Positions 11,980 to 60,262 of a stretch of DNA of 64,000 bases are shown in pieces. The translations under genes were made by a program, and so were the position numbers. The stretch is from positions 73,067 to 137,066 of the forward strand of contig JAZOLO010000008.1 of NCBI GenBank assembly GCA_045653035.1, read 5' to 3'. Each line of letters opens with the position of its first letter. Position 1 is the first letter of the stretch. The notes below the pieces were generated by a model that did not search any database, had not been told where the DNA came from, and saw only the letters and a program-made list of their open reading frames with translations. Source of the DNA: Eubacteriales bacterium. GTDB taxonomy: Bacteria; Bacillota; Clostridia; Oscillospirales; SIG627.

Positions 11980-12185
11980 AAAATAAAAATAGTTATGAGG
12001 TGCTTACACTCATAACCAAAGTCACAAATGATAGCACTCCACATTAAATGTGACAGTTGAATACATATTCTGCATTCACCCAACCTGCAAGAATAAAGCT
12101 CTCCTTACAGATTTCGGCGATATCTCCTTTTACCGTCCCTAGCCTTCGGGGTGTCACGGCTACTTATAGGCATCGCACCTCTATC
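11980..12185 (-). promoter_or_regulatory. Lysine riboswitch (L-box) with terminator
   Basis: The minus strand reads GATAGAGGTGCGATG..AGTAGCC..GGTAAAAGGAGATATCGCCGAAATC..GGAGAGC..TGGGTGAATGCAG..CAACTGTCAC..GGAGTGCTATC. This is followed by the terminator GGTTATGAG-N9-CTCATAAC+TATTTTTATTTT. Confidence 0.85.
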
Positions 12186-12240
12186 GTCATTATGTTAACA
12201 AAAATATCACAATTTGTCAAGATTTTTTTATAATTTGTCG

Positions 12241-53042: not shown

Positions 53043-53118
53043 TGATTTTCTCCTAATAAATTTTTAGGGATTTGCTAATTTTAATTATAACACTTGAAAG
53101 AAAAAATGTAAAGTTTTT

Positions 53119-53472
53119 TTAAAATATAAAATAATATTTTTTGAAAATGATAAAAATGTTAAGAAATTTTGCACATATTGACGAAATCAGCATTACTCTA
53201 ATGCTCGTACAGGCGGAATCAAGATTTTTATAGAAAAGTTCAAGCCAACAACCTGTTTCGTTGGCTTCTTTGAGTGCAATTTGAAGTTTTGATATAAAGT
53301 CTGCTTTACCGTGAGCATATTGCGCTTTGCGGATGTTTGCGCCGATAGAGGTGCCGCTTCTGCCGATTTGGTTAGATATTATGGATTCTCGTTTTTCTTT
53401 AAGTGATTTTACAAGATTTATGATTTGAACTGCAAAATCTAACGACATATCTCGTAATTTGCTTTCGGACAT
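53119..53472 (-). CDS. Four-helix-bundle protein (23S rRNA intervening-sequence protein/Avd-like family), variant copy with aberrant C-terminus
   Basis: RSGTSIGANIRKAQ and KLQIALKEANET motifs are present. Relative to the copy at 57257-57607 it lacks about 13 aa and reads through into a hydrophobic tail. Confidence 0.65.
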   Translation of the reverse strand: MSESKLRDMSLDFAVQIINLVKSLKEKRESIISNQIGRSGTSIGANIRKAQYAHGKADFISKLQIALKEANETGCWLELFYKNLDSACTSIRVMLISSICAKFLNIFIIFKKYYFIF

Positions 53473-53493
53473 TTATATCACTCCTTATATTTT

Positions 53494-53522
53494 ATTATAC
53501 TACAGTTTTTAGTGAAGTGCAA
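53494..53522 (-). promoter_or_regulatory. Possible promoter between ladder 1 and its four-helix-bundle gene
   Basis: TTGCAC-N17-TATAAT on the minus strand. The -35 overlaps the last 7-mer of the ladder. Confidence 0.35.
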
Positions 53523-53683
53523 GGCTTTGCCTTACATGAAGTTATGGCTTACGCCATAATGAAGTTTTGTGTTACGCACAAAGTGAAGTTAAGTGTGCCA
53601 CCCACGCCCGCAGGCACTTCACTTGCCAAAGGCATACTTCACGCACCGAAGGTGTGCTTATCGTGCCGCAAGGCACACTTAGT
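53512..53683 (-). repeat. Hairpin ladder 1: four RTGAAGT 7-mers, then ACTTCAC x2 plus two degenerate copies, separated by unrelated short hairpins
   Basis: Plus-strand 7-mers lie at 53512, 53536, 53559 and 53583. Their complements lie at 53616 and 53636, with degenerate copies near 53657 and 53677. The intervening 13-17 nt segments are each self-complementary. Confidence 0.8.
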
Positions 53684-53685
53684 TG

Positions 53686-53719
53686 AAAAAAGACCTTGTC
53701 TTTTGACAAGGTCTTTTTT
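53686..53719 (-). terminator. Intrinsic terminator of the tRNA operon
   Basis: aaaaaagaccttgtc-N4-gacaaggtctttttt. Confidence 0.85.
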
Positions 53720-53720
53720 C

Positions 53721-53917: not shown

Positions 53918-53946
53918 ATTATATCATAACGCATTGTATTTGTCAA
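53918..53946 (-). promoter_or_regulatory. tRNA operon promoter
   Basis: TTGACA-N17-TATAAT on the minus strand. Confidence 0.65.
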
Positions 53947-57256: not shown

Positions 57257-57607
57257 TCAATTTTTCTTTGCTGTAGTTATAGAAGCAATAAGCAGTTTTC
57301 TAATTTTACTGCATTTGTCAAACATATCCGCGTACTCATCTTCAGCTATCATTTTAGTATCTTTAAAAAGTCCTAACCAGTAATCACTTTCATAACATTC
57401 TTTCAAGGCTATCTGAAACTTATTTATAAAATCTGCTTTACTCGCTGCATAATTTGCTTCGTGGATATTAGCTCCAATGCTTGTGCCACTTCTCAAAAGT
57501 TGATTTAACAGCACATTTCCTTTTCTGTTTTCCTTTATCTCTGTACACAGATTAACAATATCAACTGCAAATTGTTTTGATAAATCTACAAGTTTATTTT
57601 CTTTCAT
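57257..57607 (-). CDS. Four-helix-bundle protein (23S rRNA intervening-sequence protein/Avd-like family), intact copy
   Basis: RSGTSIGANIHEANYA and KFQIALKECYESDYWL motifs are present. It is 116 aa long with a GGAG RBS. Confidence 0.75.
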   Translation of the reverse strand: MKENKLVDLSKQFAVDIVNLCTEIKENRKGNVLLNQLLRSGTSIGANIHEANYAASKADFINKFQIALKECYESDYWLGLFKDTKMIAEDEYADMFDKCSKIRKLLIASITTAKKN

Positions 57608-57623
57608 ATCATTACTCCATTTA

Positions 57624-57808
57624 ATGAATTGACAACTCCGTTGTCATGAATTGGTGTCTCGCCATGAATTGTTGTAAGCAACATGAATTGAATTGCCTTT
57701 AAAATGCACGAAGTGCAATTCATGAGCCACAAGGCTCAATTCATGAAATCGCAGATTTCAATTCACGCCGTCAGGCAATTCATTGATTTCAAGCTTCGCT
57801 TGAAATCA
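57624..57808 (-). repeat. Hairpin ladder 2: ATGAATT x4, central stem-loop, AATTCAT/C x4, separated by unrelated short hairpins; terminal 11 bp-arm palindrome
   Basis: Plus-strand 7-mers lie at 57624, 57646, 57664 and 57683. Their complements lie at 57717, 57738, 57760 and 57777. Hairpins such as gacaac-tcc-gttgtc, gttg-taag-caac, gagcc-acaa-ggctc and gaaatc-gca-gatttc sit between them. The palindrome tgatttcaagc-ttc-gcttgaaatca spans 57784-57808. Confidence 0.85.
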
Positions 57809-57836
57809 TTGTAGCACATTTAATCAAAATTTGCAA
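57808..57836 (-). promoter_or_regulatory. Promoter reading into ladder 2 and the four-helix-bundle gene
   Basis: TTGCAA-N17-TACAAT with an upstream TG, on the minus strand. The -10 abuts the terminal palindrome. Confidence 0.5.
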
Positions 57837-58637: not shown

Positions 58638-60044
58638 TTATTTCTTTGCAGCTTTTTTTACTAAATTACAAAGTGCTATAAGACCGATAACGTTGGGAAG
58701 TACCATGAGGTAGTTGAAGAAGTCGGTAAGCTCCCATACAAGGTCGTTCTTAAGAGTTGTTCCAAGGAAGATAAATACAATTGCTACGATTGAGTAAATA
58801 ACTGTTGCAGCCTTTGAGTTCTTGAAGAGGTACTGAACGTTTATCTTACCAAAGAAGTTCCAGCTAAGAATTGTGGAATAAGCAAAGAAGAGAAGACAAA
58901 TTGCAACAAATACACTGCCTATAGCATCGGGCACGACTGTACCGTAAGCCATCTGCATAGCGTTTGTCTTCATGATACCCTGTTCAGCAATAGCCGCAGC
59001 ATAATCAGAGCTTGCAAGAAGTCCGCCCTCTCCAACGTAAAGTGTGGAGATAACAACGAGTGCGGTCATTGTAAGAACTATGAAGGTGTCGATGAATACA
59101 CCGATCATAGCAACAACGCCCTGGTCGTGAGGCTTCTCAACGTTTGCCTGCGCGTGAGCATGAGGTGTTGAACCCATACCTGCTTCGTTAGAGAAAAGAC
59201 CTCTCTTTGCACCCTGACTGATTGCAGTCTTAAGAGCGTAGCCTATACCACCACCGATAAGAGCATCGGGAGTGAATGCATACTTAAAGATTGCACCGAT
59301 GGTTGCTGGGAGATACTGAATACGGCAAGCAAGAATAACGATACCGCCCACAAGGAAAAGACCTGCCATGAAAGGAACCATCTTTTCTGTGACGGATGCA
59401 ATTCTCTGTATACCGCCTATAAAGATGATAGCTGAAACTACCGCAAGAATAACACCTATAATCCAGCCCCATGCAGTATAATCAACCTTTGCGGCAGAGC
59501 AAATTGCCTCTGCAATTGAGTTGGACTGTACCATTGAACCCATAAAGCCGAGAGCAAGGATAGCGGCAATAGAGAAGAACACTGCAAGGAATTTACCAAA
59601 TCCGCCTGTAAATGCTTTCTTTATGTAGTAAACGGGACCGCCGTGTACTTCACCGTTTTCATCAACTGCTCTTGTTTCCTGTGCAAGTACTGCCTCGGCA
59701 TAGATTGTTGCCATACCAAGGAAAGCTATAACCCACATCCAGAAGATTGCACCGGGACCACCGATTAGGATTGCACCTGACGCACCAACGATGTTACCTG
59801 TTCCTACCTGTGCGGCAATTGCAGTAGCGAGTGCCTGGAAGGAGCTGAGTCCTCCCGCCTGCTTTCCGCCCGAAAGCTTGAAGTTGCCAAATACCTTTTT
59901 CATTCCTTCGCCAAAGCAGCGAAGCTGAACGAAGCGTGTTTTAATCGAAAACAGAAGACCTGTACCTACGAGAAGGATTATAAGGATATAATCCGACAGG
60001 TAGGCGTTTGCTGCTGCTACGATTTCAAGAATTTTGTCTTGCAT
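58638..60044 (-). CDS. Alanine/glycine:cation symporter (AGCS family)
   Basis: It shows an AGCS-type N-terminus and topology, and it sits downstream of a glycine riboswitch. Confidence 0.85.
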   Translation of the reverse strand: MQDKILEIVAAANAYLSDYILIILLVGTGLLFSIKTRFVQLRCFGEGMKKVFGNFKLSGGKQAGGLSSFQALATAIAAQVGTGNIVGASGAILIGGPGAIFWMWVIAFLGMATIYAEAVLAQETRAVDENGEVHGGPVYYIKKAFTGGFGKFLAVFFSIAAILALGFMGSMVQSNSIAEAICSAAKVDYTAWGWIIGVILAVVSAIIFIGGIQRIASVTEKMVPFMAGLFLVGGIVILACRIQYLPATIGAIFKYAFTPDALIGGGIGYALKTAISQGAKRGLFSNEAGMGSTPHAHAQANVEKPHDQGVVAMIGVFIDTFIVLTMTALVVISTLYVGEGGLLASSDYAAAIAEQGIMKTNAMQMAYGTVVPDAIGSVFVAICLLFFAYSTILSWNFFGKINVQYLFKNSKAATVIYSIVAIVFIFLGTTLKNDLVWELTDFFNYLMVLPNVIGLIALCNLVKKAAKK

Positions 60045-60060
60045 GATAAGACCTCCTAAA

Positions 60061-60262
60061 AATAAAAAAAGTTACTGTAAAAGTAACTCCGGAAAAAATA
60101 CACAATACACACCATTTGTGGCTTGTGTTAACTCTATCCTTTTGCCTGAGAGATTCGGCTTACAGCCTTGCACCTTCGGCACTCAAATGAATGAGATTCT
60201 CCAGAGTTCCCTGATTTTACGGTTCTTTCGTTCCGCAAAACTTCAGCGGGTATTTAATTTAC
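60061..60262 (-). promoter_or_regulatory. Glycine riboswitch leader (one clear aptamer) with terminator
   Basis: The minus strand reads CTCTGGAGAATCTC..GTGCCGAAGGTGCAAGGC..CTCTCAGGCAAAAGGATAGAG (about 60133-60212). This is followed by the terminator AGTTACTTTTACAGTAACT+TTTTTTATTTTT. Confidence 0.8.

Follow-up and report, generated by a model that had tools for sequence, protein, structure and literature searches.

A two-part inverted ladder of hairpins and 7-nucleotide words extends the Gut-1 family and accompanies Avd-like genes in gut Clostridia

The 64,000-nucleotide stretch analysed here (contig JAZOLO010000008.1, positions 73,067 to 137,066, Eubacteriales bacterium assembly GCA_045653035.1; hereafter the window) carries two ladder-like elements, in which copies of a 7-nucleotide word and then of its complement alternate with short hairpins. 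Here, we report an analysis of the ladder at 53512–53683 (copy 2), whose gene-sense strand is the minus strand and which holds RUGAAGU-type words followed by ACUUCAY words, with a distinct GC-rich hairpin between each. It is flanked by the terminator of a tRNA-Thr/Tyr operon and by a gene for a four-helix-bundle (Avd-like) protein of family PF05635. From sequence comparison and covariation, we identify this ladder as a divergent, homologous member of an extended Gut-1 family (Rfam RF01706); the same comparison indicates that Gut-1 as published is the first half only of a two-part inverted array, which is new. The word arrays and hairpins are real and non-random, and they belong to a widespread element of gut bacteria.

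Gut-1 was described from 43 human-gut metagenome fragments and rated 'RNA: yes; cis-regulatory: no', and it was assigned no organism, linked gene or function (Weinberg et al., 2010; PMC2864571); our search found no later literature on it. In a permissive scan, the Rfam model matches 53611–53685 of the minus strand with 42.7 bits (E about 2e-7), which is below the gathering score of 50 bits. Relatives of copy 2 score 64.3 and 50.8 (locus L087), 47.1 (L096), 44.9 (L062), 41.8 (L113) and 38.4 bits (L086), and the other ladder of the window (copy 1) gives no match to the covariance model at E ≤ 10. Copy 2 shares with Gut-1 at least three consecutive short GC-rich hairpins with covarying stems, split by a repeated RUGAnnU 7-mer (RUGAAAU-like in Gut-1), and its related loci come, by their record titles, from human and ruminant gut Clostridia metagenome-assembled genomes. 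The Gut-1 consensus comprises four GUGAAAU words with three hairpins between them, and the flanks of its seed alignment already hold the complementary half outside the model (GUGAUAU...AUAUCAC and GUGAAAU...AUUUCAC). Gut-1 matches the two halves of the L087 ladder on opposite strands, one on the plus strand with 64.3 bits and one on the minus strand with 50.8 bits, so that a ladder is two Gut-1-like arrays in inverted orientation. This L087 ladder (477–648), above the gathering score on both strands, is an orphan directly after tRNA-Leu, and a second ladder about 800 nt past it precedes a four-helix-bundle gene. Gut-1 as published is typed as a small RNA (sRNA), 'not cis-regulatory', with no function, gene link or organism; the ladder described here adds the inverted complementary half, a closing helix (P1) with hairpin 1 as its alternative, words of several classes, and tight linkage to PF05635 genes, tRNA terminators and rlmD.

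Read along the minus strand, the copy 2 locus runs from tRNA-Thr (UGU; 53886–53812; ARAGORN, and Rfam tRNA with 72 bits), the first gene of the operon, through tRNA-Tyr (GUA; 53805–53721; ARAGORN and Rfam tRNA) and the terminator hairpin hp0 (53720–53685) to the array, a Shine–Dalgarno sequence and a 117-codon open reading frame (ORF) at 53472–53119. The tRNA operon has a perfect-consensus promoter, TTGACA-17-TATAAT with TG, at 53918–53946 (−). hp0, an inverted repeat with symmetric A-tract/T-tract and 16-bp arms, abuts the first word, and a hairpin is found at this position in all related ladders. The array then reads ACUAAGU-hp1-GAUAAG-hp2-GUGAAGU-hp3-GUGAAGU-hp4-GUGGGU-GGCAC-ACUUA-ACUUCAC-hp5-ACUUCAU-hp6-ACUUCAU-hp7-ACUUCAC. 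The word ACUAAGU (W1') and the 5' arm of hairpin 1 occupy 53672–53683, and hairpin 1 itself, GUGCC-UUGC-GGCAC, lies at 53663–53676. It is followed by the GAUAAG linker (53657–53662), which reappears in relatives as GATAAG or GATATG beside a GGCAC/GGAAC arm. Folding and word scans place hairpin 2, the segment with CCUUCGG, at 53643–53656; a GUGAAGU word at 53636–53642; hairpin 3 (UGCC-UUU-GGCA) at 53623–53635; a second GUGAAGU, also seen as an inverted repeat, at 53616–53622; and hairpin 4 (GCC-UGCG-GGC, 53606–53615) with the centre linker GUGGGU (53600–53605). Next come the arm a' (GGCAC) and the partial word C0 (ACUUA) at 53590–53599, placed by complementarity and alignment. The complementary half (C-half, 53512–53589) has ACUUCAC at 53583–53589, ACUUCAU at 53559–53565 and 53536–53542, and ACUUCAC at 53512–53518, with hairpins 5, 6 and 7 as spacers at 53566–53582, 53543–53558 and 53519–53535. 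On the plus strand, RTGAAGT thus starts at 53512, 53536, 53559 and 53583, and its complement lies at 53616–53622 and 53636–53642, so that 6 of the 32 RTGAAGT matches of the whole window are packed into 131 bases, where a background of about 2.5e-4 matches for each position and strand would predict about 0.07. The predicted fold is far more stable than that of shuffled sequence (z = −6.1; copy 1, z = −5.4). Between ladder and gene, a candidate promoter, TTGCAC-N17-TATAAT (53522–53494), was read from the sequence, with its −35 box overlapping the last complementary word; a simple promoter scan missed it, the first hexamer having 3 of 6 consensus bases.

An earlier reading of the letters alone (the sequence-only reading) had proposed much of this layout. 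The four RTGAAGT repeats with two clear complements were recovered by the word scan; the segments between words, which it described as all different in sequence and all hairpins, proved so by folding and covariation; and both the position directly after the tRNA-Thr/Tyr terminator and the promoter hexamers were found as it described. It had also named two classic stable loops, one of which, GUAA in tatggcGTAAgccata, is a proper GNRA loop. The other, a C–G-closed UUCG tetraloop in cacaccTTCGgtgc, cannot form in register; the best pairing is either CACC/GGUG, which leaves a UUC triloop, or GCAC/GUGC, which leaves a loop of 7 nt. Two further words that it listed as degenerate, TTATCGT and ACTTAGT, were correctly placed and are not degenerate: the former corresponds to the recurrent GAUAAG linker, and ACTTAGT, read as ACUAAGU on the gene strand, does not vary among 12 relatives. 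The description of the ladder as partly decayed fails for a related reason, as AACTAAGT and ACTTAACTTCAC are invariant in the same relatives and form a conserved helix.

This helix, P1, was examined in a structure alignment of 12 copy-2-type ladders. It pairs UAAGUGUGCC (53681–53672) with GGCACACUUA (53599–53590) over 10 nt with 100% complementarity; the first word and the 5' arm of hairpin 1 thereby pair with the centre and the first complementary word. All alignment cells of P1 (100%) are paired, and 4 of its 10 pairs are altered on both sides. Hairpin 1 is likewise 100% paired, with two-sided changes in 4 of 5 pairs, and it uses the same 5' arm, so that the two are mutually exclusive; because both are fully paired and covarying, they are conserved competing alternatives. 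The hairpins of the C-half are 87–88% paired, and 5 of 6 pairs covary in each. None of 500 shuffles reached the observed pairing and covariation values. In copy-1-type ladders, the arms of P1 extend by 4.4 on average, compared with 2.6 for cross-locus controls, and the arm pairs are distinct (for example GCC/GGC, GCAACC/GGTTGC, GCCGT/ACGGC and GCGCG/CGCGC), with a few recombinant exceptions (L049 and L058). Just after the first AATTCAT, copy-1-type ladders (for example L001 and L010) have a conserved purine-rich GGAGCGNAGCGAG, which is absent from copy 1 of the window. It is not a Watson–Crick hairpin and contains a GCGNAGC minihairpin with possible tandem G·A pairs, and a GGCGGAACGCC hairpin is sometimes inserted into it.

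The comparison as a whole covers about 130 related loci. In the general layout, a unit is one 7-nt word with one GC-rich hairpin of free sequence; about four units with RUGAnnU words precede about five with exactly complementary AnnUCAY words, and the element typically stands behind a tRNA-operon terminator or an rlmD-like gene and immediately before a stand-alone Avd-like gene. A genome scan with both window proteins gave 80 copy-1-type loci from 80 gut Clostridia species, with proteins 84–95% identical to that of copy 1. An ATGAATT/AATTCAT ladder lies directly upstream of the gene in 79 of these 80 loci, and at the remaining one the contig extends just 6 nt upstream. When metagenomes were scanned with the copy 2 protein, 49 loci were returned, of which about 30 have 66–83% identity and mostly carry a ladder. 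Across the loci, word and complement change together in five core classes (AG/CT, AT/AT, TA/TA, TG/CA and AA/TT), and the top TGAnn core of the word half (W-half) and nnTCA core of the C-half are complementary in 34 of 40 loci. The pairs seen are GTGAAGT/ACTTCAC, ATGAAGC/GCTTCAT, ATGAAGA/TCTTCAT, GTGATGT/ACATCAC, ATGAATT/AATTCAT, GTGATAT/ATATCAC and GTGAAAT/ATTTCAC; positions 1 and 7 compensate too, as the first two of these pairs illustrate, and only U2, G3 and A4 of the word are invariant. The covariation that the sequence-only reading had noticed between the two copies thus holds for both and for many more loci. It had further held that independently varying halves would refute pairing; the halves do covary, but this does not decide the matter, since a double-stranded site present in both orientations, such as an inverted protein-binding site, would covary too, and W:C covariation alone is therefore no proof of pairing.

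Nor do the word counts favour a strict ladder of one-to-one W–C rungs. Among 77 copy-1-type ladders, 64 have four W-type words and 63 have five C-type words, and five loci have only two W-type words yet five C-type words. Moreover, variant words indicate nested pairing in L113 and L088 and same-index pairing in L082, L086 and L096; a strict rung ladder is thus unsupported, given the four-versus-five counts and the inconsistent register among loci. Several other ideas were also rejected. A leader peptide finds no conserved frames between the AUG and UGA triplets inside the words; masking of the ribosome-binding site finds no conserved anti-Shine–Dalgarno sequence; loop–loop kissing between halves finds loops that are unmatched within elements; and likeness of the words to 23S rRNA, anticodon or T-loop sequences gave inconsistent matches.

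The protein encoded beside the ladder is a candidate reader of the words. PF05635 is the family of Avd, the accessory variability determinant of diversity-generating retroelements (DGRs), and is also known as the '23S rRNA intervening sequence protein' family. The closest homolog of the window proteins in the PDB by sequence is 2RLD, with five chains (E 6e-27); an AlphaFold model of the two window proteins had a mean pLDDT (predicted local distance difference test) of 49 and was left unused, and we relied on homology to 2RLD. In the one solved complex, the Avd pentamer holds a tetraloop-capped RNA stem-loop and inserts unpaired bases into inter-protomer crevices, using the same residues from different protomers; of 278 DGRs, 207 are predicted to have a stem-loop of this type, capped by GNRA or UNCG (bioRxiv 10.1101/2023.10.23.563531). 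The ladder-linked proteins resemble DGR Avd in belonging to this pentamer-forming four-helix-bundle family, and Avd's use of equivalent pockets on different protomers to bind a GC-rich stem-loop with a GNRA or UNCG loop is the point of comparison for the RNA. They differ in that no reverse transcriptase and no template or variable repeats were seen nearby, and in that Avd binds one 9–11-bp stem-loop, whereas the ladder has 8–9 short hairpins with repeated words. Our literature searches yielded no functional data on PF05635 beyond DGRs.

We tentatively propose, at somewhat less than even confidence, that the adjacent, predicted-pentameric protein has its cognate RNA platform in the ladder. The words are identical within an element whereas the hairpins differ, which implies a single common reader of the words rather than recent duplication, and five C-type words per element would fit five protomers. 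The ladder would act as RNA on its gene-sense strand, and the five gene-proximal C-type words between stem-loops would be the binding sites, one word for each protomer crevice. Because the ends of a hairpin stay at a fixed distance whatever its length, the spacers would present consecutive words at constant pitch, and they would therefore have to fold and yet be free in sequence and length. The W-type words and the hairpin 1/P1 switch may mask or expose the C-type sites; where the ladder is a 5' untranslated region (UTR), as at copy 1, binding could feed back on translation of the protein or the stability of its mRNA; and word and protein may have diverged together, which would give paralogous modules (copy 1 and copy 2) without cross-talk. 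The coexistence of modules with different words in the window, at L075 and at L018 fits such a divergence. In a wider and more doubtful form of this proposal, stand-alone Avd-like pentamers and Gut-1 ladders would constitute a previously unrecognised class of RNA–protein module, in which a five-fold, hairpin-spaced word array wraps or caps the pentamer, the anti-array and the hairpin 1/P1 switch gate access, the word/protein pairs are orthogonal, and the module is wired to stable-RNA transcription (tRNA read-through, rlmD and the 23S intervening sequence).

The proposal has conceptual precedents. TRAP, which reads 11 GAG/UAG repeats, and HutP are oligomeric binders of repeat RNA that act on autoregulatory mRNA leaders; in the TRAP-like concept, a ring-shaped homo-oligomer reads a short word, one per subunit, in a 5' leader. 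The role proposed for the ladder shares this concept, but fold and words differ, the spacers are hairpins and not 2–4 nt, and a complementary anti-array is present. ToxIN, a type III toxin–antitoxin system, has identical 36-nt tandem ToxI repeats, then a terminator and the gene of an endoribonuclease toxin. As in ToxIN, a repeat array lies directly upstream of a small-protein gene whose product would bind the array RNA; in the ladder, however, only 7-mers repeat, the hairpins all differ, and nothing points to a nuclease or a toxin. A type III toxin–antitoxin system was accordingly rejected, in view of the absence of identical tandem repeats of about 36 nt and of any meaningful PADLOC result.

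Several observations support an RNA. Own-promoter relatives have a conserved extended −10 promoter (TGnTATAAT) just before hp0, P1 always faces the same way with respect to transcription, and the fold energies of both window copies lie well below those of shuffled sequence, as given above. The gene-sense strand is supported as the better RNA strand by a U·G pair in P1, which is valid only on that strand and occurs in 4 of the 12 aligned sequences, and by G–U-compatible word variants, in agreement with the RNA-level structure suggested in the sequence-only reading. In 45 of the 80 copy-1-type loci, an rlmD-like gene for a 23S rRNA m5U methyltransferase lies upstream, and its 3' end is hp0; the remaining loci have their own promoter, TTGnnn-17-TGnTATAAT, which places the transcription start at hp0 and so makes the ladder the 5' UTR. 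The last word is only about 16 nt, plus a Shine–Dalgarno sequence, from the ATG in the copy-1-type. In some copy-1-type loci (for example L010 and L018–L026), the rlmD-like ORF passes its usual ...HVESVVCL end, hp0 and the first word, and its extension stops at a UGA inside the second word; therefore, ribosomes would unwind the start of the ladder.

Nevertheless, a number of findings weigh against a pentamer-bound RNA platform. The first concerns the hairpins. Their stems are nearly pure Watson–Crick, with G·U at about 1% and as rare as A·C, which is unusual for RNA: distinct hairpins give Watson–Crick/G·U/A·C pair counts of 199/1/2 (W-half) and 325/2/1 (C-half) in the copy-1-type and of 87/1/1 and 207/3/1 in the copy-2-type. 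A strand test from these G·U and A·C counts was uninformative, both being about 1%. Their loops are mirrored: those of the W-half are of the U..C type and those of the C-half of the G..A type, with 5'C–G3' as the closing pair in almost every case, a pattern that points to optimisation of the halves on opposite strands. The second concerns the partners: the ladder-linked proteins are only mildly basic (isoelectric point 8.4–9.2); many copy-1-type C-type words are AAATCAT, which mismatches ATGAATT; and gene and ladder are adjacent and co-inherited, so that a correlation of word with protein is by itself no proof of recognition. The third concerns linkage. In most copy-2-type loci, the window included, a promoter splits the ladder from the gene, and because it intervenes, the ladder there lies outside the gene's own 5' UTR and would be transcribed only through read-through of the tRNA terminator. 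Finally, ladders without a four-helix-bundle gene occur in the Gut-1 seeds and at L062, L070, L087 and L210.

The mirrored loops bear on an explanation at the DNA level, which we consider unlikely: each unit would be a DNA hairpin or cruciform arm, extruded from supercoiled or transiently single-stranded DNA together with a 7-bp word, and the array, bound by the Avd-like protein or another factor, would be an operator or architectural array abutting a promoter. Because the loop asymmetry is mirrored, the basic unit can be taken as [hairpin C(GNA/GNNA)G + AnnUCAY] on one strand, used in two orientations. At L119, which encodes a 39%-identical protein behind tRNA-Thr/Tyr, the halves stand in reverse order with the same unit polarity. 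In that ladder (880–1150), TATATCATCA-type words come first and TGATGATATA-type words second, with word orientation still tied to loop type; the reversed half order excludes an origin of the mirrored loops in a replication bubble. A DNA-level array would accommodate this, as well as stems that are Watson–Crick on both strands and loops that mostly read C(GNA)G or C(GNNA)G along one strand, with their mirror image in the opposite half; it would explain the W/C covariation trivially, by inverted double-stranded sites, and it fits the way the ladder abuts the −35 box in the copy-2-type and the −10 box in the copy-1-type. GNA loops of the d(GCGAAGC) type are exceptionally stable in DNA. DGR targets, moreover, need a DNA hairpin or cruciform downstream of the variable repeat, whose GC-rich stem may vary but whose GRNA loop is sequence-specific, and which Avd may contact (Guo et al., 2011; PMC3240598). 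Like the ladder, that target combines variable GC-rich stems with a conserved, strand-specific G..A loop and is tied to an Avd-family protein; it is, however, a single 7–10-bp hairpin with a 4-nt loop, whereas the ladder has multiple 3–7-bp hairpins, mostly with 3–4-nt loops, and 7-nt words (PMC3240598). Against a DNA-level array, the whole ladder is necessarily transcribed as 5' UTR in copy-1-type loci, U·G in P1 is tolerated on the sense strand only, word spacing ranges from about 9 to 23 bp with no helical phasing, and the sole solved Avd complex binds RNA.

The genomic positions of the ladders raise a further explanation. Copy-2-type ladders lie 212–314 nt downstream of a tRNA gene in 17 of 31 loci, and the tRNAs are varied (Ala, Arg, Tyr, Gly, Gln, Glu, Ser, Cys, Pro and others). 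Most copy-2-type loci have a good promoter between the last C word and the gene, with a −35 box abutting or overlapping that word, and TTGCAC-N17-TATAAT of the window has the same arrangement. An intrinsic terminator or tRNA trailer alone was rejected for copy 2, since about 170 bases past the terminator (53685–53720) keep their architecture behind different tRNAs. Stops or truncations occur beside apparently intact ladders at L075 (an in-frame stop), L087, L089, L097, L100 and L111; these truncated copy-2-type genes may be frequent pseudogenes, or some may be assembly errors. It is conceivable, though again we think it unlikely, that the ladder is a structured RNA independent of the protein, either the Gut-1 'sRNA' itself or a trailer or leader, which would insulate, stabilise or direct the processing of transcripts leaving stable-RNA operons, with the gene as a frequent passenger. 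The steady placement after tRNA terminators, the orphan ladders that follow terminators with no gene, the intact ladders beside broken genes (copy 2 of the window, L075, L087, L089, L097 and L100) and the fold stability given above would all suit such an RNA. What it leaves unexplained are the identical, concertedly changing words amid drifting hairpins, the retention of five C-type words and the retention of the ladder at 79 of 80 copy-1-type genes.

To some degree, the element also behaves as a repeat. At L008 (2300–3010), a unit of promoter −10, hp0, four W-type and five C-type words stands three times in tandem before the gene. Second ladders lie about 1.3 kb downstream of the gene at L028 (2250–2480) and L044 (2200–2480), after a decayed rlmD 3' fragment; that of L028 is followed by the first approximately nine codons of the four-helix-bundle gene with the ATG mutated, and by their sequence both are segmental duplications of the module. 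GTGAAGT-type ladders occur about 0.5 kb downstream of a copy-1-type gene at L062 (2170–2390) and L070 (925–1100), each preceded by an rlmD-like 3' fragment, and the one of L062 is followed by a 351-aa protein without a Pfam family and by no four-helix-bundle gene. A scan of viral contigs for a pattern of three ATGAATT gave mostly AT-rich giant-virus repeats, with true ladders in 1 of 120 loci (L210); this IMG/VR contig has two ladders on opposite strands, with GCGAAGC/GCGAAAGC minihairpin spacers and no adjoining four-helix-bundle gene. A selfish duplicative or mobile repeat, similar to repetitive extragenic palindromes and bacterial interspersed mosaic elements or to miniature inverted-repeat transposable elements, which would gather behind hairpins and terminators with or without the gene and serve no host function, appears very unlikely to us. 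It would account for the tandem triplication at L008, for duplicates at L028 and L044 that take in about 60 nt from the 3' end of rlmD together with the gene's first codons, for second ladders at most 3 kb away in several loci, for the frequent pseudogenes and for ladders behind many different tRNAs. No transposase, integrase or target-site duplication was seen, however, the window neighbours are ordinary chromosomal genes, and only two copies lie in 64 kb; the copy-1-type protein is also strongly conserved across its 80 species, and the compensatory changes in hairpins and P1 imply that the structure has long been under selection.

The copy 2 gene itself (53119–53472, −) differs from its relatives. 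Its product scores 68.8 bits with Pfam PF05635 (cut-off 33.8) and 77.3 bits with TIGR02436 (cut-off 24), and the copy 1 protein scores 88.1 and 99.2 bits, above the same curated cut-offs. The copy 2 match covers only positions 6–81 of the 106 of the profile and so falls short of a full-length four-helix domain, whereas copy 1 is complete. An altered C-terminus had already been noted from the sequence, and comparison with 28 relatives bears this out: copy 2 uniquely lacks 10 residues (LYKTNYIxExE) and uniquely has ANIRK in place of ANIRE, a Glu-to-Lys change in the conserved ANIxE motif, and its C-terminus is non-homologous (…ICAKFLNIFIIFKKYYFIF). This aberrant tail enters the 11/12 promoter of the next gene, an amino-acid permease gene, at 53112–53084 (−). 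By alignment, the gene is probably decaying while its ladder, which shares the complete layout of its relatives L086 and L088, stays intact. It is not the duplicate of copy 1 that the sequence-only reading had supposed, as the two proteins are 50% identical and belong to separate, widespread paralogous clades. In the copy 1 module, also on the minus strand, a promoter TTGCAA-17-TACAAT with TG (57808–57836, promoter scan) is followed by a ladder at 57624–57807 with the layout of its related loci, and an intact gene at 57257–57607, the homolog of PDB 2RLD. The ladder comprises hp0 (57785–57807), AUGAAUU-type words at 57777–57783, 57760–57766, 57738–57744 and 57717–57723, P1 (57774–57782 with 57689–57697), C0 at 57689–57694 and AAUUCAU words at 57683–57689, 57664–57670, 57646–57652 and 57624–57630; on the DNA, four ATGAATT and four to five AATTCAT lie within 57624–57783. 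Genes near both copies encode FeoB, an amino-acid permease, a LOG-family protein, a Na:Ala symporter, a serpin and a leucine-rich-repeat protein. No reverse transcriptase or integrase was found among ten large ORFs scanned at 45–64 kb, no long repeat of the template/variable type was seen near the Avd-like genes, as a DGR would have, and neighbour annotation gave no defence genes near either copy. PADLOC returned no family for copy 2 and only a weak SduA match below significance for copy 1, and comparison of the window proteins with PHROGs gave nothing meaningful. Elsewhere in the window lie a lysine riboswitch (12024–12191, −; 108 bits) and a glycine riboswitch (60124–60214, −; 63.8 bits), the latter upstream of the sodium:alanine symporter gene at 58638–60044.

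Gut-1 has been an orphan since 2010, known from metagenome fragments only, and the present analysis ties it to PF05635 in about 130 loci. PF05635 is a very large family, in which the Avd proteins of DGRs are the only understood members. The two unknowns are thereby merged into one directly testable hypothesis, that of cognate RNA binding by a pentamer, which, if true, would give a function both to this orphan Rfam motif and to the large share of PF05635 that lies outside DGRs. The recurring tRNA-operon and 23S rRNA methyltransferase neighbours hint that the family is linked to stable-RNA biology, and such a link would echo its original discovery within 23S rRNA intervening sequences.

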